Shown piece after piece: positions 21,284 through 42,907 of a DNA stretch of 64,000 nt (its first letter is position 1; each line of letters begins with the position of its first letter). A program made the translations under genes and the position numbers. The notes below the pieces were generated by a model that did no database searches, was not told the origin of the DNA, and was given only the letters and a program-made list of their open reading frames with translations. The DNA is from Dehalococcoidia bacterium (lineage in GTDB: Bacteria; Chloroflexota; Dehalococcoidia; Plut-88900), in NCBI GenBank assembly GCA_965207225.1, contig CBDBLV010000003.1, positions 64,001 through 128,000 on the forward strand. The letters run 5' to 3'.

Positions 21284-22948
21284 ATGACGAAGAAGCACCT
21301 ACAGCCCCTGACGCCGGCGGCGCTCTACGCCAGGGTGTCCAGCGACCGCCAGGACGTGGACCTGTCCGTGTCCGCCCAGCTTCGGGCGCTCAAGGAGTAC
21401 GCCAGGGCCAACGGCTACTCCGTGGCCCGGGAGTACATCGACGAGGCCGAGAGCGGGCGAGTCGCCGACCGGCCCCAGTTCCGGGAGATGATCGACGAGG
21501 GCTCCAAGCCCCAGGCGCCTTTTGCGGTGATTTTAGTCTGGAAGTTTTCGAGATTCACCCGCAAGCGGGAGCACGCCGTGGCCTTCAAGTCCCAGCTGCG
21601 GCGCAAGGGCATCCGGGTGGTGTCCATCACCGAGCAGGCCGAGGACAACGCCACCGGCAGGCTGCTGGAGGGCATCATCGAGAGCGTCGATGAATACTAC
21701 AGCGAGAATTTGGCGCAGGAGGTCGTCCGGGGCATGAGGGAGGCTGCGTCGCGGGGTTTCTTCCTCGGCTCGAAGGCACCCTTCGGCTACAAGAAGATCA
21801 AGGTGCAGGACGGCCCCAAGGAGCGCCCCTCGCTGGAGGTGGACCCGGCCACGGCTCCTGTAGTGAAGGAGATATTCGAGAAGTCTCTAAACGGTCACGG
21901 ACTCAAGGAGCTTTGCAAGGAACTGAACGACCGGGGCGTCACCAACCGGGGCAAGCGCTGGTACAAGGGCGGTCTCCACTACGTGCTGCGGAACGAGGCG
22001 TACACCGGAACAGCGGTGTGGGGACTCAAGGGCAAGGGAGAGAAGACCCAGGACCCGGTGAGGGTTGAGGGAGCGTGGCCCGCGCTGGTGTCGAGGGAGT
22101 TGTTCGACGAGGTTCAGCAAGCCATGAGCGAGCGCGCCCCGAAGGTGCAGAGGCCCGCGAGGGTGGGAAGCCCCTATCTGCTGAGCGGCCTGCTCAAGTG
22201 CGGGGTGTGCGGCAGGCCCTACTCGGCCCAGGGAGCCAAGAGCGGCCAGTTCGCCTACTACATCTGCGGGACGCTGTTCCGGGAGGGAGCGGGGACGTGC
22301 AGTGCCCGCTACCTGAACGCTTCCAGGGTGGAGGAGTTCGTGGTGGAGAAGATCAGGGAGCGCATCCTCACCGAGGAGACCATCGTGGAGCTGGTGCAGC
22401 TTGTGGCGGAGGAGATCGACGCGATGGCCGGTGAGCTTGCAGGGAGGCTGGAGTCTGTGGAGGCGGAGTTGTCCGACGTGCAGAGGCGTCTTGGGAAGCT
22501 CTACGAGGCCATCGAGACGAGCGACCTGACGCTGGAGGTGCTGTCGCCCCGCATCATGTCCCTGCGGCACCGCGAGGAGCAATTGGAGGCTGCGCGTGAG
22601 GACGCCGAGACCCAGCTGGAACAGCGGAGAGTGGAATTGCCCGACACCGAGGAAATCGCGCGGTACGTGGCGGACTTCCGGGACTTCCTGAAGCAGGGGA
22701 CGATACCGGAGCGCAAGGCGCTCATCCGCAACTTCGTGGAGGGCATCGAGGTGGAGGGAAACGAGGCGACGCTGACGTACACGGTCCCCATGCCGAGCGA
22801 CGGCGTGACCAGGGAATCGGCCTCGGTTCTTGATTTCGTCCAGTTCAGCCCACCAGACTTGACGGTAGACAGAACCGGAGCGTGCAAAGCCACCTCCTCG
22901 GCGTCCCTTCCCCCTATGGGAGCATCCTCCGGCATGGGTATGGAGTAG
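21284..22948 (+). CDS. Large serine recombinase LSR1 (integrase of E-mid)
   Basis: YARVSS catalytic motif, recombinase domain, LLSGLLKCGVCG Zn ribbon and coiled coil; GGAGG RBS. Residues after 22851 are read-through into E-right. Confidence 0.95.
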   Translation: MTKKHLQPLTPAALYARVSSDRQDVDLSVSAQLRALKEYARANGYSVAREYIDEAESGRVADRPQFREMIDEGSKPQAPFAVILVWKFSRFTRKREHAVAFKSQLRRKGIRVVSITEQAEDNATGRLLEGIIESVDEYYSENLAQEVVRGMREAASRGFFLGSKAPFGYKKIKVQDGPKERPSLEVDPATAPVVKEIFEKSLNGHGLKELCKELNDRGVTNRGKRWYKGGLHYVLRNEAYTGTAVWGLKGKGEKTQDPVRVEGAWPALVSRELFDEVQQAMSERAPKVQRPARVGSPYLLSGLLKCGVCGRPYSAQGAKSGQFAYYICGTLFREGAGTCSARYLNASRVEEFVVEKIRERILTEETIVELVQLVAEEIDAMAGELAGRLESVEAELSDVQRRLGKLYEAIETSDLTLEVLSPRIMSLRHREEQLEAAREDAETQLEQRRVELPDTEEIARYVADFRDFLKQGTIPERKALIRNFVEGIEVEGNEATLTYTVPMPSDGVTRESASVLDFVQFSPPDLTVDRTGACKATSSASLPPMGASSGMGME

Positions 22949-24432
22949 CGTAGCAGCGCGTTCCCCGGCATCACGACGATCTCCTTCACGAAGGACTCGA
23001 TGAAGGCCCTCCGCTCGGTCAGCTCGCTCTCGTTGAGGAACACGCTCAGGTCCTGGGCATAGGCCGTGATGGTCTCCACGTCGTCCAGCACCTCCCTGCG
23101 CTGGGAGAGAATGGCCCTGGCCTCAACAGCCGACGCCTCCAGCTTCTCCTGCCGCTCCCTGTGGTCTCTGATGCGGGGCTTGAAGTCCTCGATGTCCAGA
23201 TCGGTAGTCTCCGCTAGGTCGTAGAGCCGCCCCAGCCTGCGCTTCACGTCCTCAAGCTCAGACTCGATGGTCTGAAGCTTCTGCCGCTGCTCCTTTGCGA
23301 TGCCGTCCATCTCCTCGTCCACCAGCTTCACCAACTCCCGGATGTTGGAGTCGGTGAGCACATTCTGACGTATCTTCCCCACCACCATCTCCTCGAAGCG
23401 CCGTGCGTTGAGCCTGGGAGTCTCGCAGGCGTGCCTGCCCCGTTTCATGATCGACTGGCAGACGTAGTAGGCATACTTCCCGCTCTTGGCGTCCTGGCCG
23501 CTGAGCGCCCCGTCGCACGCCTTACACTTGACCATCCCGCTGAGCAGGTAGGTGCTTCCCACCCTGCGGGGGTGAGTCTTCCTGGGAGCGCGGGAGCGCA
23601 TGCGCCTGTTCACCCTCTTGAACTGGGCCTTGGAGATGATTCCGGGAAACGCCTTGTCCACCCTCACCGGCTCATCCTTGCCCTTTCCGCCGACGCCCCA
23701 GAGGAGGGTTCCGGCGTAGGCTTCGTTGCGGAGGATGATGTGGACGCCGTTCTTGGACCAGAGCCTGCCCGTGGGATTGGCGATGCCCTCTGTGTTGAGG
23801 GTCTGGGCGATGTCCAGGATGCCCCTGCCCGACTCGGCCATGGAGAAGATGCGCTGGACCACGGGAGCGGTGGCGGGATCGGGCTCCAGGGTTGGGCGCT
23901 TCTTGGCCCCGTCCTGTACCATGCGCTTGGCGTAGCCGTAGGGCACGCGGCTGGCGACCCAAAAGCCTCTGGAGGCCGCTTCCCGCATCCCCCGCCGAAC
24001 TTCCTCGGCAAGATTTTCCGAGTAAAACTCGTCCACCGACTCGATGATGGCCTCCATGAGCCTGCCGGTGGCGGAGTCGTCTGCGTGCTCGGTGATGGAG
24101 ACGACGCGGACGCCCTTGCGCCTGAGCATGGACTTGAAGGCGACGGCGTGCTCACGCTTGCGGGTGAACCTGCTAAATTTCCAAACAAGAATCTCCGCAA
24201 ACGGGGCCTCCGGCTTGCTGGCCTCGTCCAGCATCTTGCGGAACTGGGGCCGGTCGGCGATGCGTCCGCTCTCGGCCTCGTCGATGTACTCCCGTGCGAC
24301 GGTGTAGCCGTTCTTGTCGGCGTAGTCGCGCAATGCCCGCAGCTGGGCGGCCACGGACAGGTCCACGTCCTGGCGGTCGCTGGAGACCCTGGCGTACAGG
24401 GCGACGGGTATCAGGTCGGTCCGTTCACTCAT
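22501..24432 (-). CDS. Large serine recombinase LSR2 (integrase of E-right)
   Basis: YARVSS motif; paralogue of LSR1; GGAGG RBS before ATG 24432. Residues left of 22850 are read-through antisense to LSR1. Confidence 0.93.
   Translation of the reverse strand: MSERTDLIPVALYARVSSDRQDVDLSVAAQLRALRDYADKNGYTVAREYIDEAESGRIADRPQFRKMLDEASKPEAPFAEILVWKFSRFTRKREHAVAFKSMLRRKGVRVVSITEHADDSATGRLMEAIIESVDEFYSENLAEEVRRGMREAASRGFWVASRVPYGYAKRMVQDGAKKRPTLEPDPATAPVVQRIFSMAESGRGILDIAQTLNTEGIANPTGRLWSKNGVHIILRNEAYAGTLLWGVGGKGKDEPVRVDKAFPGIISKAQFKRVNRRMRSRAPRKTHPRRVGSTYLLSGMVKCKACDGALSGQDAKSGKYAYYVCQSIMKRGRHACETPRLNARRFEEMVVGKIRQNVLTDSNIRELVKLVDEEMDGIAKEQRQKLQTIESELEDVKRRLGRLYDLAETTDLDIEDFKPRIRDHRERQEKLEASAVEARAILSQRREVLDDVETITAYAQDLSVFLNESELTERRAFIESFVKEIVVMPGNALLRYSIPMPEDAPIGGRDAEEVALHAPVLSTVKSGGLNWTKSRTEADSLVTPSLGMGTVYVSVASFPSTSMPSTKLRMSALRSGIVPCFRKSRKSATYRAISSVSGNSTLRCSSWVSASSRAASNCSSRCRRDMMRGDSTSSVRSLVSMAS
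22826..22875. other. LSR recombination junction J2 (E-mid | E-right), inside both LSR genes
   Basis: GTTCTTGATTTCGTCCAGTTCAGC-CC-ACCAGACTTGACGGTAGACAGAAC: 50 bp centred on CC at 22850-22851. Confidence 0.85.
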
Positions 24433-24486
24433 TGGTTCCTCCTTCGTATCGGCCATACTGTTCGGCGTCGTGCGAGTAGAGGCTTC

Positions 24487-25605
24487 TCACCGCGCTGGAT
24501 TCGCCCCCCAGCACTCCGTCAGGCCCTGTTCGGCGTCAATGGACGGCACCCCGGCGACCGGCTCCGCACTCACCAACGCCACGCCCGTATCGTGGAAGCC
24601 GAGGTCGGTTGCGGGCTGCGGCTTCTGTCCGGTCTTGGCGAACTCGACCACGGCCTCAACGCCCTGCATTGCCATCCGAACCGGAAACTGCATGGCGGTG
24701 GCTCCAAGCTCTCCGCTGGCGACCCTGTTCACTCCGGAACAGGCCCCGTCGATGGTGACGATCAGCACCTCGCGCTCCAGCCCCATGGAACGGAGCGCCG
24801 TGTATGCTCCCGCCGCCGCGGGCTCGTTGATGGCGTACACCAGGCGGATCGACGGGTCCATGCGCATCAGTCGCTCCATCGCGCTGCGTCCACCTGCTTC
24901 CGCGCCCATGGTGGCAGCGCTGCCGGCGATGCGCGGGTCGTCCTCGTCGTACTTCACCCCCGGGTCCTTGATGTCGATGCCGAAGCCGTGGAGGAAGCCC
25001 TGGTTGCGCATCACGTCGACGGTGACCGGCGTCTCGTAACCGTCCAGCGTCGCGATCCGCGTCCGGGCCGCCAGCGGCCCCAGCTTCTCCCGCGCCCAGA
25101 TGCCGACTAGTTCACCGGCCCGGAAGTTGTCGGTGGCGAAGGTGGCGTCAACCGTGTCCGGCAGGTCGAAGGGTGTGTCGAGGGCGATCACCAGCACGCC
25201 CTCCGCACGCGCTTGCGCGACCGACGGGGCGAGGGCCAGCGGGTCCGACGGGGTGATGAGGATGCCCTTCGCGCCCGCCGCGACCAGTTCCTCGATGGCC
25301 GCTATCTGCGCCTGTGCATCCCCGTCGTAGGCGCCGCTGTAGGTGCGCAGTTCGACGCCGAGCTCCCCGGCGCGCTCAAGCGCCACCTCGGCCATGGTGA
25401 CGAAGAAGGGGTTGCCCTCGGTCTTGGTAATCATCCCCACGACCACGAGGTCGGCCTCGGTGGAAGCAGGTTCCTGAGCGCAACCGATGAAAATCACGAC
25501 GATAAGGCAGAACGACATGGCGACGAAGGACGGCACCCTGGCAGACATGGCAACAGGCGTGCGGCCATTCGTCCGATTCATAGGTACGTTCTGCTCTCGT
25601 TTCAT
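24487..25605 (-). CDS. Sugar ABC transporter substrate-binding lipoprotein (FrcB/RbsB-like), orphan
   Basis: ITKTEGNPFF, VIALDTP, FATDNFRAG, YAINEPAA and TAMQFP; FIGC lipobox-like motif; start uncertain. Confidence 0.85.
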   Translation of the reverse strand: MKREQNVPMNRTNGRTPVAMSARVPSFVAMSFCLIVVIFIGCAQEPASTEADLVVVGMITKTEGNPFFVTMAEVALERAGELGVELRTYSGAYDGDAQAQIAAIEELVAAGAKGILITPSDPLALAPSVAQARAEGVLVIALDTPFDLPDTVDATFATDNFRAGELVGIWAREKLGPLAARTRIATLDGYETPVTVDVMRNQGFLHGFGIDIKDPGVKYDEDDPRIAGSAATMGAEAGGRSAMERLMRMDPSIRLVYAINEPAAAGAYTALRSMGLEREVLIVTIDGACSGVNRVASGELGATAMQFPVRMAMQGVEAVVEFAKTGQKPQPATDLGFHDTGVALVSAEPVAGVPSIDAEQGLTECWGANPAR

Positions 25606-25607
25606 CC

Positions 25608-25832
25608 CTATTCGTCCCGGGCTGAGCGCCGCCGCTGCATTCGTTCCTTGATACGCCACTCCCGTTCCTCCATGTACAGGCGGATGGCCTCCCGGAGCAC
25701 CTCGCTCAGGGTGCGGCTCTCGTCCTTCACCACCTGTCGCACCTGTTGGGCCATCTCTGGGGGCAGGGAGAAGGTGATGGTGTCGGTGTTCCTCGGCTTG
25801 ACGGGCAACGTGCGCTCCCCATTTTTGTCCAT
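25608..25832 (-). CDS. Ribbon-helix-helix (CopG-like) regulator
   Basis: TITFSLPPEM...RTLSEVLREAIRLY. Confidence 0.75.
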   Translation of the reverse strand: MDKNGERTLPVKPRNTDTITFSLPPEMAQQVRQVVKDESRTLSEVLREAIRLYMEEREWRIKERMQRRRSARDE

Positions 25833-26367
25833 TGATATAGTGTAGCGTCTTACTCTCTATCATCCCCCATCGGCAACCCCGCCGTCAAGGGAGAGATGGC
25901 AGGAACCGGGCCGGGAGACCCTGACCCTGCGATTTTGCTGCGACAGTGTTGCACCATTGCAGCGAGCAATCTGCCAGCGTGGGCAAGGTCCGTCTCAGGT
26001 CGTCTGGAGCCGTCAAATGACTCCCCGGATGCCGGATGTGATGTGCTACCCGTGTACAAGGATTTGTGTCAGTTCCCAAAAGGGAAGTCGGGGCTGTTCT
26101 GAAGCTGAATCAGGCCGAAACGGAGGGTGTTGCTAAACGAGAGCGAGCACTTCGATATAAGGGCAGGTTCACCCGATTCGGGCAAGACTTCCCAAAAGGG
26201 AACTGAGGGCATTGGGTGCCTAGAGCGTCTCTTCAGCTACATAGGAGCCACAACGCAGCGAGCGATCCGGCGGGGCCGGTTAAGGCGGCCGATACGCCTT
26301 CTGAAGCTGCCCGGAGCTCCTTCGGGGGCCGGTTTTGATGTCGTGGGGGTGTACAGGGATTGGCGTC

Positions 26368-26935: not shown

Positions 26936-27006
26936 ATGTGGGCAAGTTGTCCCAGCAAGGCTGCTGGGACGACCCCTATTGGAAGGGTTCGGAACGGAAA
27001 GGGCGG

Positions 27007-29046
27007 TCATTGCGCAGGCTGATGCATCACGGAAATCGGCCTTCTGTGGAGGGAATATGGCGGGGGCAGTATCCATGAATCCCCCAGGACGCCGTGCTCG
27101 GCAAGGTCCACAGTGTTCGATGTGACGATGGGCGCGTCGTCCTCTGCGTCGGCGACGTCGAGGAAGGCTGACTCAGTAGCGGGGGACTCGAAGACGAAGA
27201 GCACGTGAGGCAGGTGTCCCCCGTGGTCTCGCTTCGCCCAGCCACTACGGAAGTAGCGCCGGTAGGACCTCAGGCGTTTGGGGATGCGCTTTGGTGTTGT
27301 GGCTCTCCGCTCGAACTCCAGAAGGAACGGACGCCACTCGCCCTTGTACTCCAGGGTGAAGGAGGCGTCGGGGTGGATGGCGTAGGTGGTCTGGTCGTGG
27401 CGGTAGCCGATGCTGGAGCGGTGGGTGGGCAGCAGGTCGAACAGGTCGTAGTCCGGGGAATTAGCGACCTCGGCTGAGAGGGCTGAAGCGAAGCGGACGA
27501 CGCCGGCGTGGTGGCGCAGCTGGGCGGCCAGGGCGCGCAGGGCTGTCCCGACGTAGACGGAGGGCTTCCTGAGGGTGAGTTCAGGGCTCCAGCGGTCGAG
27601 GGTGAGGCCGACGGCGGCCCGGTCCCGGCGGGCCAGATGCGTCAACCCCTCGTCGGTGAGCATGAGCAGGGAGCCGTCCTCCCGCACTAGGCCGTGCTCA
27701 CGGAGGGAGCGGAGCACCTGGTTGACCCGGCGCAGGGTGACGCCGCCCATCAGTCCCGCAAGCTGCTCACGGGTGCATAGGGGCCATGCCGACAGCAGGT
27801 TCAGGGCGTCCTTCCCGGCGCGGGTGAGTTGCGCCGAGAGAGATGACGTGAGTTGCTCGCCAGGCTCCGGCATGGCGGCCTTCACACGGGAGGAGTAGAG
27901 GTCTTCGAGCTCGGGCCTCGGGTTGTCGCGGAAGAATGAATGAGACTTGTCCAGCAGCCGATCCATCCAGGCCATGATGCTTCTCAGGGACGCGCCGGGG
28001 TCGATAGGCACGGGCGGGTCGATGTCCCGTCCGTCTCCGCACTGTTGCCAGACGGCGCCGGTGTGGGCAACGGCCAGGAGCTCCCCTTCCGTCGCCGCGA
28101 AGGTCCTGCGGTGCTCCGATGGGTCTCCCAGTGAGCGTATGGCCCTGCGGGTGGCCTGGTCGGCATGGGTCAGGACCAGGGTGGCGAAGGGCCTCTCCCG
28201 GCTGGGGAGGCGCTCGACGCTTCTAAGGCGGTAGCGCAGGTTGGAGGTGGGCAGGGTCGCTCCCTGGCGGATGATGCCGATGGAGCGTCCACCGGACATG
28301 GTGATCAGCATGTCGTAGGGGCCGCTGCGGTAGTGGTCCACGCGCACGGGCTTCTCATGCGGGTCAGCATCGGCGATCATGGCGGCGACGCGGTAGTGCA
28401 CGGCCACGGCGTCCATACGCTCGGCCAGCAGCCGGACCCACTGCCTGGACACCGGGTACTCGCTGAGGAAGTGGTCCGTGCCGTGCTCGATCCGCCCTCC
28501 GGCGACGATCCCCTGCTTCGTGGGGAAGTAACGGCGCTGGGGCCGGGAGCCGAGAATGCCCAGGTGGTGCGGCACGGAGGCCGCCAGGCCCCGACTGGCG
28601 AGCTTGCCTAGGCGTTCTCTCATAGTGGAGGCTGGGACTCTGCCGAAGCGGGAGAGTTCGTCCACGGTGGCCAGGGGTGTGGCGCAGACCAGCCGGAGAG
28701 CGTCCTCAAGGGCCTCGGACAGGCGCTTGGAACCGGTCGCCGGGCCGCCGTCCTTCAGCCGCCGTCTGGCTCGCGCTTGGAGTATCAGCCGCTCCTCGGC
28801 GTCCTCCACCGCCTCTGGTCTGTCGCCCACTTGCTCCAGCACCGCGCTGGGGATAGCGCGCCCGGCGTGGCCCCGGTCGAGGAAGCGCCACAGGGTGTGA
28901 CGGGACACGCCGAGGGTCTCGGCCGCCTTGGGCCTCCCGTGCAGCACGGCGTAGGTGCGCACGTAGTCCCGGACCGCCTCATCGAGGTCCGCTCCACCCT
29001 GCGCCGCGCCGTTCGATGCTTGTGTTCGTGTATCCGTGGCTGCCAC
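27007..29046 (-). CDS. Replic_Relax (MOB_C-like) protein, copy 3, intact and divergent, with extra N-terminal HTH
   Basis: YPVSRQWVRLLAERMDAVAVHYR matches copies 1 and 2; HPDASF...FLLEFER...Y-RYF motif. Confidence 0.8.
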   Translation of the reverse strand: MAATDTRTQASNGAAQGGADLDEAVRDYVRTYAVLHGRPKAAETLGVSRHTLWRFLDRGHAGRAIPSAVLEQVGDRPEAVEDAEERLILQARARRRLKDGGPATGSKRLSEALEDALRLVCATPLATVDELSRFGRVPASTMRERLGKLASRGLAASVPHHLGILGSRPQRRYFPTKQGIVAGGRIEHGTDHFLSEYPVSRQWVRLLAERMDAVAVHYRVAAMIADADPHEKPVRVDHYRSGPYDMLITMSGGRSIGIIRQGATLPTSNLRYRLRSVERLPSRERPFATLVLTHADQATRRAIRSLGDPSEHRRTFAATEGELLAVAHTGAVWQQCGDGRDIDPPVPIDPGASLRSIMAWMDRLLDKSHSFFRDNPRPELEDLYSSRVKAAMPEPGEQLTSSLSAQLTRAGKDALNLLSAWPLCTREQLAGLMGGVTLRRVNQVLRSLREHGLVREDGSLLMLTDEGLTHLARRDRAAVGLTLDRWSPELTLRKPSVYVGTALRALAAQLRHHAGVVRFASALSAEVANSPDYDLFDLLPTHRSSIGYRHDQTTYAIHPDASFTLEYKGEWRPFLLEFERRATTPKRIPKRLRSYRRYFRSGWAKRDHGGHLPHVLFVFESPATESAFLDVADAEDDAPIVTSNTVDLAEHGVLGDSWILPPPYSLHRRPISVMHQPAQ

Positions 29047-33305: not shown

Positions 33306-36300
33306 ATGATGAGCCGCGCCGCCGGGTTCCGACGCCTGCTCACGTTCCGTACCTTGCTGGCCGTGGCCGCGGTGCTGGCGCTGCTCCTGACCCTGCTCCA
33401 TGCGCAGCAGGCGCAGGCCCAGTCCGGCGGCCTGACGCTCGCCGTGACCGAGCGCAGCGAAAGCAGCCTGACGGTGCAGTGGAGCCAGCTTGAAGACGTG
33501 GTTACCTATACCGTCATCCTCCTCGGGGGTGACGAGTTTTTGGTGCACACCGCCTCACCCGGAGAGGACACCTACGTCTTCACTGGCTTGCAGGCTGACT
33601 TCCAGTACGAGCTGAGCGTCAGCGCCTTCCGCAGCGACGCCAGCAGCGCCGGCGAGGTTCAGATCAGGGCGCGCACACTGCCGCCCATCAAGCCAGAGCC
33701 GACGCCGGTGGTGGAGCCCGAGATCGTCCCCCAAGTAAGCGTGACGGCTGGCCCTGAGGTAACCGAGGGCAGCGACGCCGTATTCACGATAACGGCAGAC
33801 CCGGCGCCTGCCGGTGACATCACTGTGGAGCTGACTATCACTGCCGGCGGCGACGTGATCGGCGACGGAGAGACCGGCCAACGGACCGTGACTGTTCCGG
33901 CCAGCGGATCAGCGACCTACGCCGTGTCCACCGTCGACGATGGCGTGGTCGAATCCCCCGGAACCGTTACGGCGACGCTCGTCTCCGCCGGCGGCGGCTA
34001 CGCCGTCGCGGATACGCCCGGAAACGCGGCGACTGTGACGGTGACCAGCGAAGACTGGCTCCTCCGCACTCCCACGATCAAATTGGTCCAGCCCAGTAGC
34101 ATTACTTCTGAATATGGGCCAACCCTCTTCGGGATGTACGTCCGCCCGGTGTCGACCAAGCCCTTGCTGATCAACGTGAAATTGTCGCAGCAGAACGACT
34201 TCTACGATCCCGCGGATCTGGGGCTGAAGCAGTGGCTGATTCCGGCCGGAGAAGACTACGTGGTGCACGAGATCACTCCGATTGACGACAGCGTGGCCGA
34301 ACCTGACGGCAGCATCACCCTGGAACTGCTGCCGGGAACGGGATACAAGCTGGGGCCGTACAAGTCCGCCACGAAAAGGATCCGAGACGAAGACCTGACC
34401 GAGGAGGAGCGGAAGAATTACACGCCGGAAATCCGGGTCACCGGGACATGGGTCAGCGGGAGACCTCATCAAGAAGGCAGCGATCACCGGTTCAAGTTCG
34501 CGTCGAAAAAATCCCTGTCCAGTCCGCTCCCCATCACCGTGGAGATCAGCCAGATTGGCGATTTCGTGGCGCCGGAACACCTGGGCAAGTACCAGCTGAC
34601 CATTCCCGCCGCTCCTTCCAACGCCTACTTGACTATCCCCACGGTGGACGACCAGGTGGACGAGCCGAACGGCCGAGTGGTGGCGCGGGTTCTGCCCGGC
34701 GACGGCTACGTGGCAGCCCGGTGGCAGGAAAAGGAACACGGGTGGCATGACTACGGCAGCCAGTGGATCCAGGACAATGACGAGGTGGAATTCACCCTCG
34801 CCGCCGGTCCAGACATCAGCGAAGGCGGCGAGGCGGAGTTCACCATCAGCGCCTCGGAGGCGTCGCCAGCCCGGACGGAAACCATCAAGGCCCTCGTCAG
34901 CCAGGGCGGCGACTTCGTGGACGCGCCGGGCGACCTGGGCCTGCGTACCCTCACCATCACCACCGGGCAGTCCGTCACGCTGCGCGTTGCCACCGACGAC
35001 GACGGGACCGATGAAGCCGACGGCTGGGTGAGCCTGTCCATTGAAGGCGCTGCGGCGCAGGTCGCAGTCTCCGACGACGATGGCGGGCAGGTCGCGCAGG
35101 CCGGAGATTGCGTAGCCGATGTCTCCACCAACTGCACGGCCCGCGTTGATGGCAAGGTGGGCGGCGTACTGGATTCCAACCGCGACCAGGACTGGCACGG
35201 CGTCAACCTGACCGCAGGCCGGACCTACTGGATGAAGGCGTGGGGTTTTGAGGCGGGGGTGTACTGCGTATACGACGCCCAGGGCAATTGCGCGCAAGAG
35301 GGCTACTTGGGCCAGGACGTCGTCTTCACGCCGGAGCAAAGCGGAACCTGGTTCATCGGGGTCCGGCCGTCGGGGATGACGGGGGCATGGCCCCCGACTC
35401 CGCCTCAGCACCTCTCACCTGAGTTAGTGGCACTGGAACTGCAAACGAAACCGCTGCCCGAATACGAGAGGGCCTACGTGCTGGAAGTGACCACCGTTAC
35501 CGACGATTACCCCGCCGACGCGACCACCACCGGTCAATTGAGCGCCGACGGCAGCGCGGCCACCGGCCGCAATGAAACCCGCGTGGACGTGGACTGGTTC
35601 CGGGTCATCCTGAGCGCCGGTGCGCAGTATCTTATCTACGCCGATTCGACGCTGACCAAGTCTGGACTGCTGCACCCGCTCCACGCCAGGGTCGAAGGGG
35701 TGTACGACTCCGGCGGCAACCTCGTCGCCAGCGGCGTGGAGTCCCCAATGTTGGCGGCGACTCCGGACGCTCGCATAACTCCGGACGCCGACGGCACTTA
35801 CTACGTCGCCGTCACGGGCAACCGGTACAACTACCGCCTTGACAAAGGTCACCAGCCCCCCCACCCCGATTCCACCAGGTATTCAACCTGCCTGCTGACT
35901 GCTTTCAACTGTTATGACAGTCACTGGAGATTAAGTCTGGGCAACGGGGTTGAATCCTCGGATTGGCACAATGGCGGCGTCCCATACCAACTGTCCGTCG
36001 TCACTGCGGTGGACGACTACGCAGACCACCGGGACACGACCGCCAACGTTGCTGTCGGCGGATCGTTGACCGGGGTCATAGACTACCCGGGCGACGTGGA
36101 CTGGGTCGCGGTCACGCTCCCGCCTGGCAGCCTGTATGAATTCAAGGTTGAGGGTGTTGCCGCCAACGGCAAAGCGACTTTGCCGGATCCCCATTTCACG
36201 GATTTGCTTTACGCGGCGGGTGGGGAGTTCGGTGGCGTCGTGCGCTTCCGTGGTATGCGCAGCGCGGTATGGCGTTGGTCGCAGCATGACGTCGGGAAAC

Positions 36301-39300
36301 CGGTGGATGTCGTAAACACGGACGATATGGGCTGGCACCGGCCCCCTGCGAGCCGCCTGTTCTTCCCCGGTTATGAGAACATCTATTTCATCGGCGTGAC
36401 CTCGGCGGAAAATCGCGAAGGTGTTCTGGATACCGGCGCCTACCGGGTCAGCGTATCCATCGTCCCGCAGGACCCGGAGGGAGACGACAGCTCCACGACC
36501 AGCGCTCTGACCGTTGATGGCGGAGCCGTCGAAGCGCATATCGATTCCGGCGGGGACGTGGATTGGTTCGCCGTCCAGCTCGAGGCCGGCCGCAACTATC
36601 TGCTCGGGGTATCCGTGCAGTGCCCGTACACGAGCTCGTACAGGTGCGCTTATTGGGACAGCGGCTGGGCCGTCCAGGTAAAGCTTGCTGACGCCAACGG
36701 CAAGGAAGTAGGGGTGGGATCGGGATTCAGAGATGCCCATGAAGCCGTTCAAATTGAGGCCTCGGGCACGTACTATCTCGTGGTCAGGACAGGCTTTAAT
36801 TTCCACTGGTCCGGCCAGAAGCTCAAGTACAACGCGTGGGCCAGCCTGCTCCCGGATGATGAGGCGACCGACGACATCCATACCGCCGCCGTGTTGCCGC
36901 CGGCCGTAAAGCAGTCCAAGCAGGGCGAAATCCAGTACCCGGACGACGTTGACTGGTACCGGGTCACGGTGCAGGCCGGCCGGTCCCACACCTTCACGGC
37001 GGTCTATAATCCCGCCCACAGCGTTGCCTACTACGGAGCCCGGATTAGCCCCAGCCACCGGATTGACGGACTGTTTGACTCGACTGGGGCGCCGGTCTAT
37101 GACAACGTCTACTTCTACGATGAGCGGGGGATCAAGCAAGCTTACGCGCACACAAAACGGAGCGGCAGAAGCTGGAGGGAGCTCGTTTTCGAGCCGGATG
37201 CGGACGGCGTCTATTACGTGGCGGTCTCTGGAAGCCTCGGCCCGTACCAGGTGAGACATCGGTCCGCGGTTGCCGCCGCCGTCCCGGTCCTGTCCATCAC
37301 GGCCGACGCAGCGTCGGTCGCCGAGGGCGGCAGCGCGGAGTTCACCCTGACGGCCAACCCTGCCCCCACGTTGGACCTGGCGGTGAGCGTCACGGTGTCG
37401 GCCAGCGGCGACTACGGGGCAACCACGGGGAAGCGGACGGTGACCGTCAGCACGGGCGGGAAGGCCACGCTGACCGTCGCTACCACCGGGGACGACGCCG
37501 ACGAACCCGACGGTTCGGTGACGGCCACGCTGGATACTCCGGCCACCGACGCCGGCTACAAGGTGTCAGCGGCCCAAGGCGCAGCCACGGTCACCGTCTC
37601 CGACGACGACGGACCCGCCCTGCCGGTCATCAGCGTCACCTCCGACGGCGACGTGACCGAGGGCACAGACGCCAGCTTCACAGTGACGGCGAGCCCGGCC
37701 CCCACGTTGGACCTTGCCGTGAGCGTCACGGTGTCGGCCAGCGGCGACTACGGGGCAACCACGGGGAAGCGGACGGTGACCGTCAGCACGGGCGGGAAGG
37801 CCACGCTGACCGTCGCCACCACCGGGGACGACGCCGACGAACCCGACGGTTCGGTGACGGCCACGCTGGATACTCCGGCCACCGACGCCGGCTACAAGGT
37901 GTCAGCGGCCCAGGGCGCAGCCACGGTCACCGTCTCCGACGACGACGGACCCGCCCTGCCGGTGATCAGCGTGACCTCCGACGGCGACGTGACCGAGGGG
38001 GCCGACGCGAGCTTCACGGTGACGGCCAACCCGGCCCCGGACGCGGACCTGGACGTGAGCGTCACGGTCAGCGCCACCGGCGACTACGGGGCGGCCACGG
38101 GGCAGCGGACGGTGACCATCCCGACGGCGGGCTACGCCGCGCTGGCGGTGGCCACCACCGGCGACGACGTTGACGAGACCAACGGCTCGGTGACGGTGAC
38201 GGTGGACCCCGACGCGGACCACGACGACTACCTGGTGTCCACGACCCAGGGGTCGGCCACGGTGGCCGTGGCGGACGACGACGACCCTGCGGGGGCGGAC
38301 TACACCGACTACCAGACGGTGGTCGATATCCTCCTAGAGGTGCGGGACAACCCGCCGAACCCGGCCATGCGCAACAACCCGGCCCACGTGAAGAAGTGGA
38401 ACCGGGTGCTGGCGGCCGTCGGCTACGACAGCGGGGAGTCGGCCATGCCGGCCTCCGAGGTCCACGACAACGCGGCCCAGTGGCCGGACAGCCCCTTCCA
38501 CGCGGCGTCGGTGTACCTGACGAGCCTGGAGCAGCCGCGGGGCCAGGGGCAGCAGCAGACGCCGGAGATCAGCATTGCCGGCGGCACTGGCATCACCGAG
38601 GGCGGCGACGCCGTCTTCACGGTGACGGCCAGCCCGGCCCCAGCGGCGAACCTGGACGTGAGCGTCACGGTGTCCCAGAGCGGCGACTACGGCGCGACCA
38701 CGGGCCAGCGGACGGTGACGGTTTCCACCAGCGGCATCGTCAGCTTCGCCGTGGGCACCACGGATGACAGCGCGGATGAAACCGACGGGTCGGTGACGGC
38801 CACGGTGAATACGGGCGCCGGTTACACGGTGTCGGCGACCCAGGGCGCGGCCACGGTGGCGGTGTCGGACAACGACGACGCCCCCACGCCGGAGGTGAGC
38901 GTCACCGCTGGCAATGGGGTCACCGAGGGCGGCGACGCCGTCTTCACGGTGACGGCCAGCCCGGCGCCGGCGGCGAACCTGGACGTGAGCGTGACGGTGT
39001 CCCAGAGCGGAGACTACGGCGCGACGACGGGCCAGCGCACGGTGACCATACCCACGTCGGGCAGCGTCACCGTAACCATCACAACCACCGACGATACTAC
39101 CGACGAGACCGACGGGTCGGTGACGGCCACGGTGAACGCGGGCAGCGGCTACACGGTGTCCTCGACCCAGGGCGCGGCCACGGTGGCGGTGTCGGACGAC
39201 GACCCTCAGGGGCCGGACCACACCGACTACCAGACGGTGGTGGACATCCTCCTGGAGGTGCGGGACAACCCGCCGAACCCGGCCATGCGCAACAACCCGG

Positions 39301-42300
39301 CCCACGTGAAGAAGTGGAACCGGGTGCTGGCCGCCGTCGGCTACGACAGCGGGGAGTCGGCCATGCCGGCCTCCGAGGTCCACGACAACGCGGCCCGGTG
39401 GCCGGACAGCCCCTTCAAGGCGGCCTCCGACTACCTGAGGAGCCAGGAGAACCAGGGCCAGCAGCAGACGCCGGAGATCAGCATTGCCGGCGGCGCTGGC
39501 ATCACCGAGGGCGGCGACGCCGTCTTCACGGTGACGGCCAGCCCGGCGCCTTCGTCCAACCTGGACGTGAGCGTCACGGTGTCGCAGAGCGGCGACTACG
39601 GCGCGACCACCGGCCAGCGCACGGTGACCATACCCACGTCGGGCAGCGTCACCCTGACCGTTGGCACCACGGACGATACTACTGACGAGACCGACGGGTC
39701 GGTGACCGCAACCGTCAACGCGGGCAGCGGCTACACCGTGTCGTCGTCCCAGGGCGCGGCCACGGTGGCCGTCTCGGACAACGACGACGCCCCCACGCCG
39801 GTGGTGAGCGTCAGCGCTGGCTCCGGCGTCACCGAGGGCGGCGACGCCGTCTTCACGGTGACGGCGAGCCCGGCCCCGGCGTCCAACCTGGACGTGAGCG
39901 TGACGGTGTCCCAGAGCGGCGACTACGGCGCGACGACGGGCCAGCGCACGGTGACCATACCCACGTCGGGCAGCGTCACCCTGACGGTCGGCACCACCGA
40001 CGATACTACTGACGAGACCGACGGGTCGGTGACGGCGACGGTGAATACGGGCAGCGACTACACGGTGTCCTCGTCCCAGGGCGCGGCCACGGTGGCGGTG
40101 TCGGACAACGACGACGCCCCCACGCCGGTGGTGAGCGTCAGCGCTGGCTCCGGCGTCACCGAGGGCGGCTCCGCCGTCTTCACGGTGACGGCCAGTCCGG
40201 CCCCGGCGGCCAACCTGGACGTGAGCGTCACGGTGTCCCAGAGCGGGGACTACGGCGCGACCACGGGCCAGCGGACGGTGACCATACCCACCTCGGGCAG
40301 CGTCACCGTAACCATCACAACCACCGACGATACTACTGACGAGGCCGACGGGTCGGTCACCGCAACCGTCAACGCGGGCAGCGACTACACCGTGTCGTCA
40401 ACCCAGGGCGCGGCCACGGTGGCGGTGTCGGACAACGACGACGCCTCCACGCCGGTGGTGAGCGTCACCGGCGCCGCCGGCGGCACCGAGGGCGAGTCGG
40501 TCACCTTCACGGTGACGGCCAGCCCGGCGCCGGCGGCGGACCTGGCGGTGAGCCTCACGGTCTCCCAGAGCGGCGACTACGGCGCGGCCACGGGCCAGCG
40601 CACGGTGACCGTCCCCACCACGGGCAGCGTCACCTTCACCGTCGGCACCACGGACGACAGTACTGACGAGACCGACGGGTCGGTCACCGCAACGGTGAAC
40701 GCGGGCAGCGGCTACACCGTGTCCTCGTCCCAGGGCGCGGCCACGGTCGGCGTCGCAGACAACGACGACCCGGTCGTTGAGGAGCAGACGGGCTACACGG
40801 TGGACCCGGACGTGATCGCGAAGGTCAGGGAGCTGGCGTCGCAGACGCAGCACGGCACGGCCCACGTGAACCGCTGGAACCGGGTGCTCGTCGCCTTCGG
40901 CGAGCACGACGGCACCGGCGTCACGGGCGGCCCGATGACGGCGGCCGAGGCCCAGGACATGGCGGACAAACACAGCAGCCCCGTGTGGGACGAGGTGGTG
41001 ACCGAGCTGACGGCGCTGGAGGCGGCGTCAGCGCAGACGCCACCGCCGCCCACGCCTGAGGTGAGCGTCACCGCTGGAAGCGGGATAACCGAGGGCGGCG
41101 ACGCCGTCTTCACGGTGACGGCCAGCCCGGCGCCTTCGTCCAATCTGGACGTGAGCGTCACGGTCTCGCAGAGCGGCGACTACGGCGCGACCACGGGCCA
41201 GCGGACGGTGACGATACCCACCACGGGCAGCGTCACCCTCACCGTGGGCACCACGGACGATACTACTGACGAGACCGACGGGTCGGTCACGGCCACGGTG
41301 AACGCGGGCAGCGGCTACACGGTGTCCTCGTCCCAGGGCGCGGCCACGGTGGCGGTGTCCGACAACGACGACGCCCCCACGCCGGTGGTGAGCGTCACCG
41401 CTGGCAGCGGGGTGACCGAGGGCGGGGACGCCGTCTTCACGGTGACGGCCAGCCCGGCGCCGGCGTCCAACCTGGACGTGAGCGTGACGGTCTCCCAGAG
41501 CGGCGACTACGGCGCGACCACGGGCCAGCGCACGGTGACCGTCCCCACCACGGGCAGCGTCACCCTCACAGTCGGCACCACCGACGACAGCGCCGACGAG
41601 ACCGACGGGTCGGTGACGGCCACGGTGAACGCGGGCAGCGGCTACACCGTGTCCTCGACCCAGGGCGCGGCCACGGTCGGCGTGGCCGACAACGACGACG
41701 CCCCCACGCCGGTGGTGAGCGTCACTGCTGGCAGCGGGGTGACCGAGGGTGGGGACGTCGTCTTCACGGTGACGGCCAGCCCGGCCCCGGCGTCCAACCT
41801 GGCGGTGAGCGTCACGGTATCGCAGAGCGGCGACTACGGCGCGACCACAGGCCGGCGCACGGTGACCGTCCCGACTTCGGGCAGCGTCACCCTCACCGTT
41901 GGCACCACCGACGATACTACTGACGAGACCGACGGCTCGGTCATCGCGACGGTGAACGCGGGCAGCGGCTACACGGTGTCCTCGTCCCAGGGCGCGGCCA
42001 CGGTCGGCGTGTCCGACAACGACGACGCCCCCACGCCGGTGGTGAGCGTCACCGCTGGCAGCGGGGTGACCGAGGGCGGGGACGCCGTCTTCACGGTGAC
42101 GGCCATCCCGGCCCCGGCGGCCAACCTGGCGGTGAGCGTCACGGTCTCCCAGAGCGGCGACTACGGCGCGACCACGGGCCACCGCACGGTGACGATACCC
42201 ACCACGGGCAGCGTCACCCTCACCGTGGGCACCACCGACGATACTACTGACGAGACCGACGGGTCGGTGACGGCCACGGTGAACGCGGGCAGCGGCTACA

Positions 42301-42707
42301 CGGTGTCCTCGACCCAGGGCGCGGCCACGGTCGGCGTGGCCGACAACGACGACGCCGCGCCGGAGGTGGAGATTACCGTCACCGTCGAGGCCGCGTCGGC
42401 GGTGGAGGGCGACGTGCTGGAGTTCCGGGTGCGGCTGTCCGAGGCGTCCACCGAGGAGATCAGGATCAGATGGAACACCGCGCCTGCGTACCACCTGCTG
42501 GACGACCGGGCGCACATGACCGACTATCAGTACACGGAGGGTGAGCTGGTGTTCGCGCCGGGGGTGACGGAGCTGACGGCGGAGGTGTGGCTGGAGTACG
42601 ACGACGATGAGGAGCCGGACGAGTACTTCGTGGTGGAGGCGTACCTGCCCGGGACCCTCTACCCGCCCGACGCCGTGGGAACCATGACGATCATAGACGA
42701 CGACTAG
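33306..42707 (+). CDS. Giant secreted adhesin-like protein (FN3, Calx-beta-like repeats, PPC-like domains), 3133 aa
   Basis: Signal peptide ending AQA-Q; FN3 domain; D-DWF/DVDWY PPC-like repeats; DD-DE-DG Ca-binding repeats; terminal Calx-beta. Confidence 0.88.
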   Translation: MMSRAAGFRRLLTFRTLLAVAAVLALLLTLLHAQQAQAQSGGLTLAVTERSESSLTVQWSQLEDVVTYTVILLGGDEFLVHTASPGEDTYVFTGLQADFQYELSVSAFRSDASSAGEVQIRARTLPPIKPEPTPVVEPEIVPQVSVTAGPEVTEGSDAVFTITADPAPAGDITVELTITAGGDVIGDGETGQRTVTVPASGSATYAVSTVDDGVVESPGTVTATLVSAGGGYAVADTPGNAATVTVTSEDWLLRTPTIKLVQPSSITSEYGPTLFGMYVRPVSTKPLLINVKLSQQNDFYDPADLGLKQWLIPAGEDYVVHEITPIDDSVAEPDGSITLELLPGTGYKLGPYKSATKRIRDEDLTEEERKNYTPEIRVTGTWVSGRPHQEGSDHRFKFASKKSLSSPLPITVEISQIGDFVAPEHLGKYQLTIPAAPSNAYLTIPTVDDQVDEPNGRVVARVLPGDGYVAARWQEKEHGWHDYGSQWIQDNDEVEFTLAAGPDISEGGEAEFTISASEASPARTETIKALVSQGGDFVDAPGDLGLRTLTITTGQSVTLRVATDDDGTDEADGWVSLSIEGAAAQVAVSDDDGGQVAQAGDCVADVSTNCTARVDGKVGGVLDSNRDQDWHGVNLTAGRTYWMKAWGFEAGVYCVYDAQGNCAQEGYLGQDVVFTPEQSGTWFIGVRPSGMTGAWPPTPPQHLSPELVALELQTKPLPEYERAYVLEVTTVTDDYPADATTTGQLSADGSAATGRNETRVDVDWFRVILSAGAQYLIYADSTLTKSGLLHPLHARVEGVYDSGGNLVASGVESPMLAATPDARITPDADGTYYVAVTGNRYNYRLDKGHQPPHPDSTRYSTCLLTAFNCYDSHWRLSLGNGVESSDWHNGGVPYQLSVVTAVDDYADHRDTTANVAVGGSLTGVIDYPGDVDWVAVTLPPGSLYEFKVEGVAANGKATLPDPHFTDLLYAAGGEFGGVVRFRGMRSAVWRWSQHDVGKPVDVVNTDDMGWHRPPASRLFFPGYENIYFIGVTSAENREGVLDTGAYRVSVSIVPQDPEGDDSSTTSALTVDGGAVEAHIDSGGDVDWFAVQLEAGRNYLLGVSVQCPYTSSYRCAYWDSGWAVQVKLADANGKEVGVGSGFRDAHEAVQIEASGTYYLVVRTGFNFHWSGQKLKYNAWASLLPDDEATDDIHTAAVLPPAVKQSKQGEIQYPDDVDWYRVTVQAGRSHTFTAVYNPAHSVAYYGARISPSHRIDGLFDSTGAPVYDNVYFYDERGIKQAYAHTKRSGRSWRELVFEPDADGVYYVAVSGSLGPYQVRHRSAVAAAVPVLSITADAASVAEGGSAEFTLTANPAPTLDLAVSVTVSASGDYGATTGKRTVTVSTGGKATLTVATTGDDADEPDGSVTATLDTPATDAGYKVSAAQGAATVTVSDDDGPALPVISVTSDGDVTEGTDASFTVTASPAPTLDLAVSVTVSASGDYGATTGKRTVTVSTGGKATLTVATTGDDADEPDGSVTATLDTPATDAGYKVSAAQGAATVTVSDDDGPALPVISVTSDGDVTEGADASFTVTANPAPDADLDVSVTVSATGDYGAATGQRTVTIPTAGYAALAVATTGDDVDETNGSVTVTVDPDADHDDYLVSTTQGSATVAVADDDDPAGADYTDYQTVVDILLEVRDNPPNPAMRNNPAHVKKWNRVLAAVGYDSGESAMPASEVHDNAAQWPDSPFHAASVYLTSLEQPRGQGQQQTPEISIAGGTGITEGGDAVFTVTASPAPAANLDVSVTVSQSGDYGATTGQRTVTVSTSGIVSFAVGTTDDSADETDGSVTATVNTGAGYTVSATQGAATVAVSDNDDAPTPEVSVTAGNGVTEGGDAVFTVTASPAPAANLDVSVTVSQSGDYGATTGQRTVTIPTSGSVTVTITTTDDTTDETDGSVTATVNAGSGYTVSSTQGAATVAVSDDDPQGPDHTDYQTVVDILLEVRDNPPNPAMRNNPAHVKKWNRVLAAVGYDSGESAMPASEVHDNAARWPDSPFKAASDYLRSQENQGQQQTPEISIAGGAGITEGGDAVFTVTASPAPSSNLDVSVTVSQSGDYGATTGQRTVTIPTSGSVTLTVGTTDDTTDETDGSVTATVNAGSGYTVSSSQGAATVAVSDNDDAPTPVVSVSAGSGVTEGGDAVFTVTASPAPASNLDVSVTVSQSGDYGATTGQRTVTIPTSGSVTLTVGTTDDTTDETDGSVTATVNTGSDYTVSSSQGAATVAVSDNDDAPTPVVSVSAGSGVTEGGSAVFTVTASPAPAANLDVSVTVSQSGDYGATTGQRTVTIPTSGSVTVTITTTDDTTDEADGSVTATVNAGSDYTVSSTQGAATVAVSDNDDASTPVVSVTGAAGGTEGESVTFTVTASPAPAADLAVSLTVSQSGDYGAATGQRTVTVPTTGSVTFTVGTTDDSTDETDGSVTATVNAGSGYTVSSSQGAATVGVADNDDPVVEEQTGYTVDPDVIAKVRELASQTQHGTAHVNRWNRVLVAFGEHDGTGVTGGPMTAAEAQDMADKHSSPVWDEVVTELTALEAASAQTPPPPTPEVSVTAGSGITEGGDAVFTVTASPAPSSNLDVSVTVSQSGDYGATTGQRTVTIPTTGSVTLTVGTTDDTTDETDGSVTATVNAGSGYTVSSSQGAATVAVSDNDDAPTPVVSVTAGSGVTEGGDAVFTVTASPAPASNLDVSVTVSQSGDYGATTGQRTVTVPTTGSVTLTVGTTDDSADETDGSVTATVNAGSGYTVSSTQGAATVGVADNDDAPTPVVSVTAGSGVTEGGDVVFTVTASPAPASNLAVSVTVSQSGDYGATTGRRTVTVPTSGSVTLTVGTTDDTTDETDGSVIATVNAGSGYTVSSSQGAATVGVSDNDDAPTPVVSVTAGSGVTEGGDAVFTVTAIPAPAANLAVSVTVSQSGDYGATTGHRTVTIPTTGSVTLTVGTTDDTTDETDGSVTATVNAGSGYTVSSTQGAATVGVADNDDAAPEVEITVTVEAASAVEGDVLEFRVRLSEASTEEIRIRWNTAPAYHLLDDRAHMTDYQYTEGELVFAPGVTELTAEVWLEYDDDEEPDEYFVVEAYLPGTLYPPDAVGTMTIIDDD
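37280..42355 (+). repeat. 13 intragenic ~327-bp (109-aa) tandem units with three helical inserts
   Basis: Period 327 bp (e.g. 39781 and 40108); units counted from the translation; boundaries approximate. Confidence 0.88.
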
Positions 42708-42735
42708 TCCGGCCCGGCCGGACCGGCAAGAGGAT

Positions 42736-42774
42736 GCAAGGGGGGCCTGCGGCAATGTCGCAGGCCCCCCTTGC
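42736..42774 (+). terminator. GC-rich hairpin after the adhesin
   Basis: GCAAGGGGGGCCTGCG-gcaatgt-CGCAGGCCCCCCTTGC; no U-tract. Confidence 0.65.
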
Positions 42775-42863
42775 GCTGGCCGTGGGGCGGCTAGGTAATA
42801 TACTAACGTGGGTGTCAGGATCGCCGGAGTGAAGTTGGATCACCCATCCACAATTCGAAAATG

Positions 42864-42907
42864 GTTCTGCCTATCGTCAACTCAGGCCCACCATCCAGGA
42901 CAAGAAC
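42864..42907. other. LSR junction J3 (E-right | host-side half-site)
   Basis: GTTCTGCCTATCGTCAACTCAGGC-CC-ACCATCCAGGACAAGAAC; the right-arm AGAAC is 6 bp closer to the core than in J1 and J2. Confidence 0.8.

Follow-up and report, generated by a model that had tools for sequence, protein, structure and literature searches.

Recombinase genes that read across their own crossover in a Dehalococcoidia tandem array, and conserved tail peptides at the opposite ends of their elements

What becomes of a site-specific recombinase when the crossover that joins its element to the chromosome lies inside the recombinase gene itself? This question is raised by a 64,000-nt stretch of a Dehalococcoidia genome of 4.03 Mb, 61% G+C and five contigs (genome G000, contig C3, positions 64001-128000; hereafter the window, to whose numbering all coordinates refer unless a contig is named). 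Three abutting integrative elements, E-left, E-mid and E-right, all found in the window, are the last three of a tandem array which, in a genome-wide scan, runs from before base 1 of C3 to base 106888 and comprises at least seven elements in at least 107 kb. A preliminary description, made from the letters of the window alone, had placed a CC crossover at 22850-22851 inside two convergent large serine recombinase (LSR) genes and had proposed that excision grafts a distally encoded tail onto each product. The three-element layout and the crossover within both LSR frames were indeed present at those positions, and the anatomy set out below (elements, attachment (att) sites and split recombinase frames) is very probably correct. 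The genome-wide scan distinguished four types of att arm (P, P2, R and Q), and to each belongs a partner arm marked with a prime. The elements, sites and genes in question are as follows.

3935..22849, plus strand: E-mid, a Q-type integrative element of ~18.9 kb; homology to other copies stops exactly at its final base
22852..42887, minus strand: E-right, a P-type integrative element of ~20 kb; homology to other copies extends from its first to its last base
3909..3958, no strand: site A, the E-left/E-mid junction; P-type left arm (GTTC at 3909), CC at 3933-3934, Q'-type right arm (GAAC ending at 3958)
22826..22875, no strand: site B, the E-mid/E-right junction; Q arm, CC at 22850-22851, P' arm (GTTC at 22826-22829, GAAC at 22872-22875)
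42864..42907, no strand: site C, attR type; P arm (GTTC 24 nt from the centre), CC at 42888-42889, chromosomal flank
21284..22948, plus strand: LSR1, 554 aa as integrated, residues 1-522 encoded by the element
22501..24456, minus strand: LSR2, 651 aa from the first ATG, residues 1-535 encoded by the element

Both recombinases match Resolvase (PF00239), Recombinase (PF07508) and Zn_ribbon_recom (PF13408) in Pfam, and in AlphaFold2 models of close homologues the strands of the zinc ribbon are separated by long helices (residues ~364-448). The central CC supplies positions 1-2 of codon 523 in LSR1 and of codon 536 in LSR2, so both frames cross the crossover. From codon 523, which starts on the CC at 22850, LSR1 continues through the P' arm and then through the antisense strand of LSR2, while LSR2, from codon 536, continues through the Q arm in reverse complement and then through some 115 antisense codons of LSR1. 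Site B lies inside both convergent frames, and the two genes overlap by 448 bp (22501-22948). The segments that would complete each gene upon circularization stand at the other ends of the elements, and E-left carries a further one.

3933..3989, plus strand: Q'-type tail at the left end of E-mid, cognate to LSR1; PPDLIKSRTFALKLVLDL and a stop (18 codons + stop)
42815..42889, minus strand: P-type tail at the right end of E-right, cognate to LSR2; GPELTIGRTIFELWMGDPTSLRRS and a stop
3881..3934, minus strand: P-type tail of E-left, in frame with the crossover; GPELTVGRTIFELWMGL and a stop

All three tails translate as the preliminary description had predicted, and coordinates, frames and translations agree with its proposal that the circle form would give each LSR a distal tail. 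The predicted circle forms would measure 540 aa for LSR1 and 551 aa for LSR2 (559 aa from its first ATG). These lengths and the 554 aa of integrated LSR1 follow from the coordinates as had been described, whereas the 643 aa given for integrated LSR2 counts from Met9 and becomes 651 from the first ATG.

The frequency of this arrangement was then considered across the genome and among homologues. All 33 ORFs (open reading frames) of the LSR family in G000 read through the crossover and have their stop codon outside the element. Fourteen of them run into a convergent partner (seven pairs), seven into the antisense strand of a tRNA gene and eight into other flanking sequence, and only the remaining four acquire a conserved-type tail from a neighbour; 29 of the 33 genes thus end in unrelated sequence. 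The four are listed here by contig position.

C5:1068317: LSR1 type, ending ..RTVFELWLGGL
C2:150888: with a Q' tail
C5:380715: with a P2 tail
C5:1927481: with a P tail

Beyond the crossover, the integrated C-termini are unrelated in sequence and range from 5 to more than 300 residues. Among LSR1 homologues, taken as the best 120 of 3844 database homologues with E ≤1e-50, the frame crosses the site in 120 of 120; 69 end in a convergent recombinase, 28 in a sense tail of the form ..RT[IV]FE[ML]WLG.., 13 in an attB-type half-site, 2 in a Q-like arm and 8 otherwise. For 80 LSR2-like loci in other metagenome-assembled genomes (MAGs), the reading frame enters a tRNA gene in 29, a convergent LSR1-type gene in 23 and another recombinase in antisense in 3, while the rest comprise 7 with an R-type tail, 1 with a P-type tail, 9 with other flank, 2 of opposite polarity and 6 without a recognisable arm. 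Distant representatives (30-50% identity) often have ends that, judged by eye, resemble an antisense-tRNA translation, for example ..GWTRTN.. and ..GLEPTT... The crossing of the crossover by LSR frames is far beyond chance, both in G000 and in the best 120 of the LSR1 homologues.

Sites A, B and C follow a common plan, GTTC + 20 nt + CC + 20 nt + GAAC, and carry the asymmetric core CC-ACCA in identical polarity. Site A has the attP-type spacing of 24 nt in both arms; the right half of site C is chromosomal, and its GAAC stands only 18 nt from the centre, which is the attB-type spacing. The attP is a 50-bp inverted repeat around the CC dinucleotide with 24-nt arms, and the attB is the 3' end of a tRNA gene, in which the core corresponds to the final two acceptor-stem bases, the discriminator base and CCA, and the T-loop GTTC lies 18 nt from the centre, compared with 24 nt in the attP arms. 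At tRNA junctions with a CC-ACCA core, GTTC at -18 and a P' or R' arm at +24 were found in six out of six. The tRNA genes at array starts are Ile-GAT, Ala-TGC, Lys-CTT, Val-TAC, Val-GAC and Met-CAT, together with a degenerate case at Gln-TTG.

C1:177753, C1:246051, C2:75331, C5:130499, C5:1036575, C5:1911997 and C5:589610: the tRNA-end junctions in G000

The outer half-site motif seems to be supplied by the conserved GTTC of the T-loop. Conservation is poor in downstream half-sites, with GAAC at +18 in two flank junctions in G000 and in 13 of the 120 database homologues; in these 13, the RT of the translated arm falls at codons 6-7 instead of 8-9, which is the same 6-nt shift towards attB-type spacing. 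Left and right arms pair by type: P' with P in 6/6 determinable elements, P2' with P2 in 2/2, R' with R in 2/2 and Q' with Q in 10 cases. The recombinase of P, P2 and R elements lies at the left end and reads leftwards, and that of Q elements lies at the right end and reads rightwards. When E-mid and E-right were compared with the genome by BLAST, homology between copies began and ended precisely at the crossover in several loci whose flanks differ, which identifies both as multi-copy site-specific elements. Such elements with exact boundaries at the CC lend indirect support to attP x attB recombination by these LSRs, as far as sequence can suggest it. P-like and Q-type elements alternate along the arrays, giving the seven convergent overlapping recombinase pairs and matching tail-to-tail junctions. 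A Q-type element adjoins a tRNA gene at none of the seven tRNA junctions, and one adjoins a non-tRNA site with GTTC at -18 (C5:2043313). In the alternating arrays, the enzymes might target the attR of the opposite type, or else a co-integrate circle.

We then asked whether the distal segments are conserved as peptides. The shared motif P-x-L-x3-RT, which the preliminary description had singled out, is present in the tails but lies inside the att arm, where RT is written AGA-ACC or CGA-ACT, complementary to the GTTC of the arm, and VL is written GTT-CTn. Since the DNA site dictates it, the motif provides no independent evidence for a peptide, and the peptide conservation lies after RT. Up to their common Gly, three bases distinguish the two P-type tails of the window (GTA/ATA, ACT/ACC and ATC/ATT), as had been described. 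Among Q' tails, the stop falls at codon 19 in 12 of 12 distinct copies (TAG in 8, TAA in 4), and codons 10, 12, 14, 16 and 18 are always hydrophobic. F10 is invariant, and positions 12, 14, 16 and 18 are L/I, L/F/I, L and L/V, respectively, written with three to six codons each; Leu16, for example, is CTG in 6, TTG in 5 and TTA in 1. Position 17 is acidic in 11 of 12, and positions 11, 13 and 15 vary freely. Nucleotide identity of the Q' tails is 93% in core and arm, 60% in the post-arm coding part and 27% in the 30 nt after the stop. The R tails stop at codon 17 in six of seven distinct copies, using three different stop codons, and R11, W12 and E13 are invariant although R11 is encoded by four codons. 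For the P and P2 tails, 15 of 21 distinct sequences from G000 and seven relatives (three genera) stop at codon 18 or 19. The conserved stretch extends 20-30 nt past the 24-nt arm. The ratio of nonsynonymous to synonymous polymorphism (pN/pS) after the arm is 0.44, 0.58 and 0.25 in the tail frame of P, Q' and R, respectively, compared with 0.64, 0.57 and 0.97 in the +1 frame and 1.8, 2.4 and 5.2 in the +2 frame.

Natural genes in which body and tail are contiguous were also found. The 28 sense tails among the 120 LSR1 homologues are such ORFs, as is P0169, which ends ..VLSTLPDGGPKWTVDRTIFELWLGGL, and seven of the 80 LSR2-like loci end ..RTFRWEV.. followed by a stop. A like peptide type occurs on bodies only 35% identical to LSR1-like proteins, in P0193 (..KLICEIWLNGVS) and P0250 (..PDRTIIELFV). 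The preliminary description had left room for the tails not being conserved across homologues; fixed stops, synonymous changes, pN/pS and natural contiguous ORFs indicate that they are conserved as peptides. The form upheld by selection is thus the full-length protein, encoded only on a circle or beside a neighbour in the right position, and the tail probably has some function.

Two further observations concern the tails in the genome. At C2:150888-152111 (plus strand), an N-terminally truncated LSR2-like body in opposite polarity, with the core read as CC, continues into a complete Q' tail, ..VLSTVKSGPPDLIKSRTFRLALVLDL and a stop, and bodies and tails seem exchangeable between lineages. In addition, a decayed tail, ..LTVDTTIFEMWLGSLS.., from which GAAC is lost, is present in some chromosomal right halves (C3:347566 of G000, and locus L013 at C1:1928330 of the related genome G010), and variants of it form the 29-aa endings of many database homologues. 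These decayed-tail halves may be fixed relics of old element ends.

That an integrase may be complete only on the circle has already been proposed for this enzyme class. In Dehalococcoides islands at the tmRNA gene, the 540-residue serine integrase DsiB is described as always overlapping attL with its stop codon outside the island, and the gene was proposed to be fully functional only on a circle or beside an island carrying the 3' fragment; the DsiB C-termini are given as divergent, and no conserved distal fragment is reported (McMurdie et al. 2011, BMC Genomics 12:287, PMC3146451). In the literature searched, a serine recombinase frame that crosses att is addressed only there. The likeness, which is one of layout as described, is close: the same bacterial class, a serine recombinase of ~540 aa at the island edge reading outwards, tandem arrays downstream of a tRNA-like target, and an integrase frame that overlaps attL with its stop outside the island (33/33 here). 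The differences are also clear. The DsiB islands have a single target, the tmRNA gene ssrA, where the direct repeat measures 20 bp and insertion is inferred to be in the T-loop, whereas the present elements use at least six tRNA genes, cross over at the CC before ACCA and have a core of 6-7 bp. The six-gene integration module of the DsiB islands (DsiB, DsiA, RecF-like, ParB, Mom and an RNAP-domain protein) was not found in E-mid or E-right, where small ORFs were not exhaustively scanned; the ORFs beside LSR1 and LSR2 instead match Replic_Relax, UvrD helicase, SIMPL, periplasmic-binding and HTH (helix-turn-helix) families. The distal tails, moreover, are identified and conserved here. Of the preliminary interpretation, therefore, the layout, split frames and conserved tails hold while the concept is not new; new are the conserved distal tails, several tRNA gene targets, alternating arrays, two gene polarities and different accessory genes.

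Comparable self-splitting genes occur among tyrosine recombinases. In the Mx8 integrases IntP and IntX, attP is reported inside the int coding sequence, and integration yields a recombinant gene with a new 3' end whose enzyme is active with changed site specificity (PMC6070905). Mx8 differs from the present LSRs in being a phage with a tyrosine recombinase. The C-terminal segment replaced in Mx8 is reportedly much larger. The archaeal suicidal (SSV-type) integrases have the site within their own gene, which integration splits, and excision needs intact enzyme from elsewhere; the review consulted states that self-disrupting recombinases are exclusive to archaea (PMC8371274). Having attP inside a recombinase gene that integration splits is common to these enzymes, LSR1 and LSR2, but the archaeal ones are tyrosine recombinases of the Phage_integr_3 type that are split into N- and C-terminal halves, the catalytic domain included, while here the enzyme is serine-type and bacterial and loses only a tail of 16-24 residues. 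Compared with the phiC31, Bxb1, A118/LI and SPbeta integrases, the domain order, 2-bp central dinucleotide and inverted-repeat arms are alike, as is the greater distance of the outer motif in attP (24 vs 18 nt here). In LI integrase structures the attP/attB offset is said to be ~5 bp. In these phages attP is reported to lie outside the int frame. They also differ, by published accounts, in that their targets are mostly protein-coding genes and a separate recombination directionality factor (RDF) sets directionality. The integration-dependent immunity of mycobacteriophage BPs differs in turn, since here the crossover lies in a recombinase gene and not in a repressor gene. In BPs, attP reportedly lies inside the repressor gene, and integration is said to remove a C-terminal degradation tag.

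Considering these results together, the explanation that fits best, and which we regard as reasonably likely, is that integration splits the LSR gene and that the conserved tail tunes the recombinase. Integration removes the last 16-24 codons from the gene and leaves them at the opposite end of the element, and the integrated gene then runs into whatever adjoins it, be it the antisense of a tRNA gene, the antisense of a neighbouring recombinase or flanking DNA. Circularization would rejoin tail and gene to give the full-length protein. Our best guess is that the tail tunes the activity or lifetime of the enzyme, and the chromosomal copy would then be a weakened or differently regulated recombinase. 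Integration could in that case be close to one-way unless complete enzyme were supplied in trans, which would fit the pile-up of 33 copies in arrays. That tail loss weakens the enzyme or makes integration one-way is put forward as a tentative idea that may well prove wrong. A more far-reaching view, which seems unlikely to us, would make the system a serine-recombinase, bacterial counterpart of the archaeal suicidal integrases: topology would rewrite the C-terminus, and the tail would be a commitment or directionality device, acting in cis as a miniature RDF or as its opposite. Two lineages of opposite polarity would use each other's att halves and build alternating arrays, in which neither gene could be completed and the 3' ends would overlap convergently.

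Several results weigh against the preferred explanation. Structure prediction, a check that the preliminary description had proposed, docks the tail on the enzyme in neither of the two families modelled, in which it lies outside the predicted fold. In the AlphaFold2 models of P0026 (LSR1 type, natural full-length, with an ..IFEMWLGGL tail) and of the L056 ORF (likewise natural and full-length, with an R-type tail and an aligned body that shares 95% identity with LSR2), confidence is high for the catalytic and recombinase domains, the zinc ribbon and the coiled coil. The mean predicted local distance difference test scores (pLDDT) are 80.8 and 86.8, respectively, with values <50 at residues 506-540 and 524-546, so the att-encoded segment and the tail are predicted to be flexible. 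On these models the tail is best seen as an unstructured short linear C-terminal motif, which could act on a partner subunit, DNA, an RDF-like protein or a protease, and equally could matter little. In solved complexes, SPbeta integrase is reported as disordered and unmodelled over its last 28 residues and phiC31 integrase over residues 590-605, and arbitrary C-terminal extensions may thus be harmless. For Q' tails, pN/pS is about the same in both frames, 0.58 for the tail frame and 0.57 for +1, and because the ratio fails to separate the two, the Q' case rests on the constant position of the stop and the two-residue period of the hydrophobic positions. LSR1 has 36 matches in G000 at E ≤1e-30, compared with 0-14 in 30 related genomes, and as many of the G000 copies are recent duplicates, within-genome counts overstate independence. 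Finally, a weak objection comes from the search for circle junctions, for which 22 runs were listed, all as assembled contigs: when contigs of four runs (X19, X20, X1 and X3) were compared with 3600-23300 of the window at 97% likeness, no joint at 3934 or 22850 was found, in material whose contigs break at repeats and drop rare forms. The same comparison gave two unrelated joints, 5676>17968 and 16910>16978, with sides of 20-21 nt.

If the tail were simply a by-product of an attP at the 3' end of the gene, with the fold ending before the crossover and the tail merely supplying a stop, its conservation would reflect a constraint on DNA, such as an extended binding site. Such a neutral origin is rather unlikely, though it draws on the flexible models just described, whose folded part is predicted to end ~16-25 residues before, or at, the att-encoded segment, on the dispensable, disordered C-termini reported for model LSRs, on the 'trivial explanation' of variable C-termini that McMurdie et al. 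list (PMC3146451), and on pN/pS values only moderately below 1. Several features of the tails are hard to reconcile with it: copies stop at a fixed position but with different stop codons, every second residue is hydrophobic, and residues that never change are written with more than one synonymous codon. Nucleotide identity also drops sharply directly past the stop, the same peptide type sits on recombinase bodies only 35% identical, and conservation runs 20-30 nt beyond the 24-nt arm. The description of sites A and B as an inverted repeat (I7), 75% complementary over 51 nt, could also suggest that the sites are internal sites of an inversion or shuffling switch between the two recombinases rather than element ends. 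We rejected this reading, which is exceedingly improbable, because the core CC-ACCA has the same polarity at A, B and C; arms of this kind are inherently palindromic, the blocks of homology stop at the sites, and at other loci these ends lie beside tRNA genes or unrelated flanks.

The remaining alternatives assign the tail a specific task. In one, a directionality switch, the tailed circle enzyme would integrate and the tail-less or mis-tailed chromosomal enzyme would excise, so that the state of the DNA would replace an RDF. In its favour, the encoded C-terminus does differ between the circular and the integrated state, and the tails show conservation. In phiC31 integrase, D590-592 are reported among acidic patches facing the RDF, and an RDF fused to the integrase C-terminus is described as the construct used for excisive complexes. 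A search of the window ORFs against Pfam, in which small ORFs were not exhaustively covered, gave no recognised LSR RDF. This counts for little, since RDFs belong to no common family, and E-mid has an ORF with a weak HTH_17 match. The chromosomal C-termini, moreover, are arbitrary (5 to >300 residues), so one defined excision-competent form is hard to envisage; arrays of at least seven elements and 33 copies would be unexpected if tail loss alone permitted excision, and the models predict no contact of the tail with the coiled coil or zinc domain. Taken together, these points make such a switch improbable. We give about the same low credence to the tail being a degradation or stability tag, as in the integration-dependent immunity of BPs, with a short-lived circle enzyme and a longer-lived chromosomal one, or the reverse. 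Hydrophobic and aromatic residues abound in the unstructured tail, a composition typical of C-terminal degrons, and tails end in L, V or I (..WMGL, ..LGSL, ..LDL, ..LEV and ..VSI). The four tail families, however, differ in sequence though all are hydrophobic.

Free circular copies and empty sites were sought beyond these runs. LSR1 and LSR2 queries found no relatives in a viral contig collection, and the LSR2 query gave five loci in a metagenome contig collection, none of them informative about free circles. A search within the genus for the flank to the right of site C, most of which is repetitive, recovered no empty attB for the window array; bases 1-296 of this flank match only in genome G001, where a P2-type end (L026) already fills the site, and the match in G008 begins only at base 216. 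Parts of the window are matched at ≥97% likeness by assembled contigs of two sponge-metagenome runs. A contig of run X3, another sponge metagenome, matches from 3930 rightwards and carries an R-type arm before it, not a P arm, with the loose end TTCGCAGTTCGGTAGGGTTT; a Q' end like that of E-mid thus has another left neighbour in a different sample.

Each element carries a Replic_Relax protein together with cargo, among which are restriction-modification genes, a sensor kinase and a 3133-aa repeat protein. The annotated genes of E-mid and E-right are given below.

4056-6464, minus strand: E-mid, hybrid histidine kinase / response regulator
8822-9573, plus strand: E-mid, IS4/IS5-family transposase split in two ORFs (DUF4096 and DDE_Tnp_1)
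9838-11112: E-mid, LRR (leucine-rich repeat) protein
12144-14167, minus strand: E-mid, DUF4928 protein and C5 cytosine methylase
14294-15775, plus strand: E-mid, Replic_Relax protein
16721-17170: E-mid, ORF with a weak HTH_17 match (E 3e-4, below the Pfam cut-off)
17181-19859: E-mid, UvrD-type helicase
E-mid, further genes: SIMPL, an antitoxin-like ORF and LSR1
24487-25863, minus strand: E-right, periplasmic-binding-domain protein
27007-29046, minus strand: E-right, Replic_Relax/HTH protein
33306-42707, plus strand: E-right, repeat protein of 3133 aa with at least 13 repeats of ~327 nt
E-right, further genes: a Uma2-like ORF and LSR2

The HTH_17 family, to which the ORF at 16721-17170 has its match below the cut-off, is presumably excisionase-like. 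The only Pfam match of the 3133-aa ORF is a weak fn3 near its N-terminus, and relatives of this gene stand at the right end of several other P-type elements. E-left is 9 kb long, and its recombinase lies just left of the window at C3:58629-60569 (minus strand). The Replic_Relax genes of E-left (246-1706, minus strand) and E-mid (14294-15775, plus strand) are 86% complementary over 1318 nt (I1), in an opposite orientation that is expected because the two element types have opposite polarity. The restriction-modification cargo of E-left, at 2225-3858, consists of an N6/N4 methylase and an EcoO109I-type endonuclease. With such cargo in E-left and E-mid, the arrays could work as defence islands.

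Serine integrases are widely used tools for genome engineering, and the control of their direction is an active structural question. A DNA state that alters the C-terminus of the enzyme would offer a testable way to probe the function of this end of the protein. No follow-up of the 2011 Dehalococcoides proposal was found in the literature searched, and with the conserved tails that remark becomes a well-defined hypothesis for which the peptides are known. The family also seems to offer a ready supply of integrases for the short, universal 3' end of tRNA genes at several loci, and the arrays may be the way in which sponge-associated Dehalococcoidia come to have genomic islands exceeding 100 kb.

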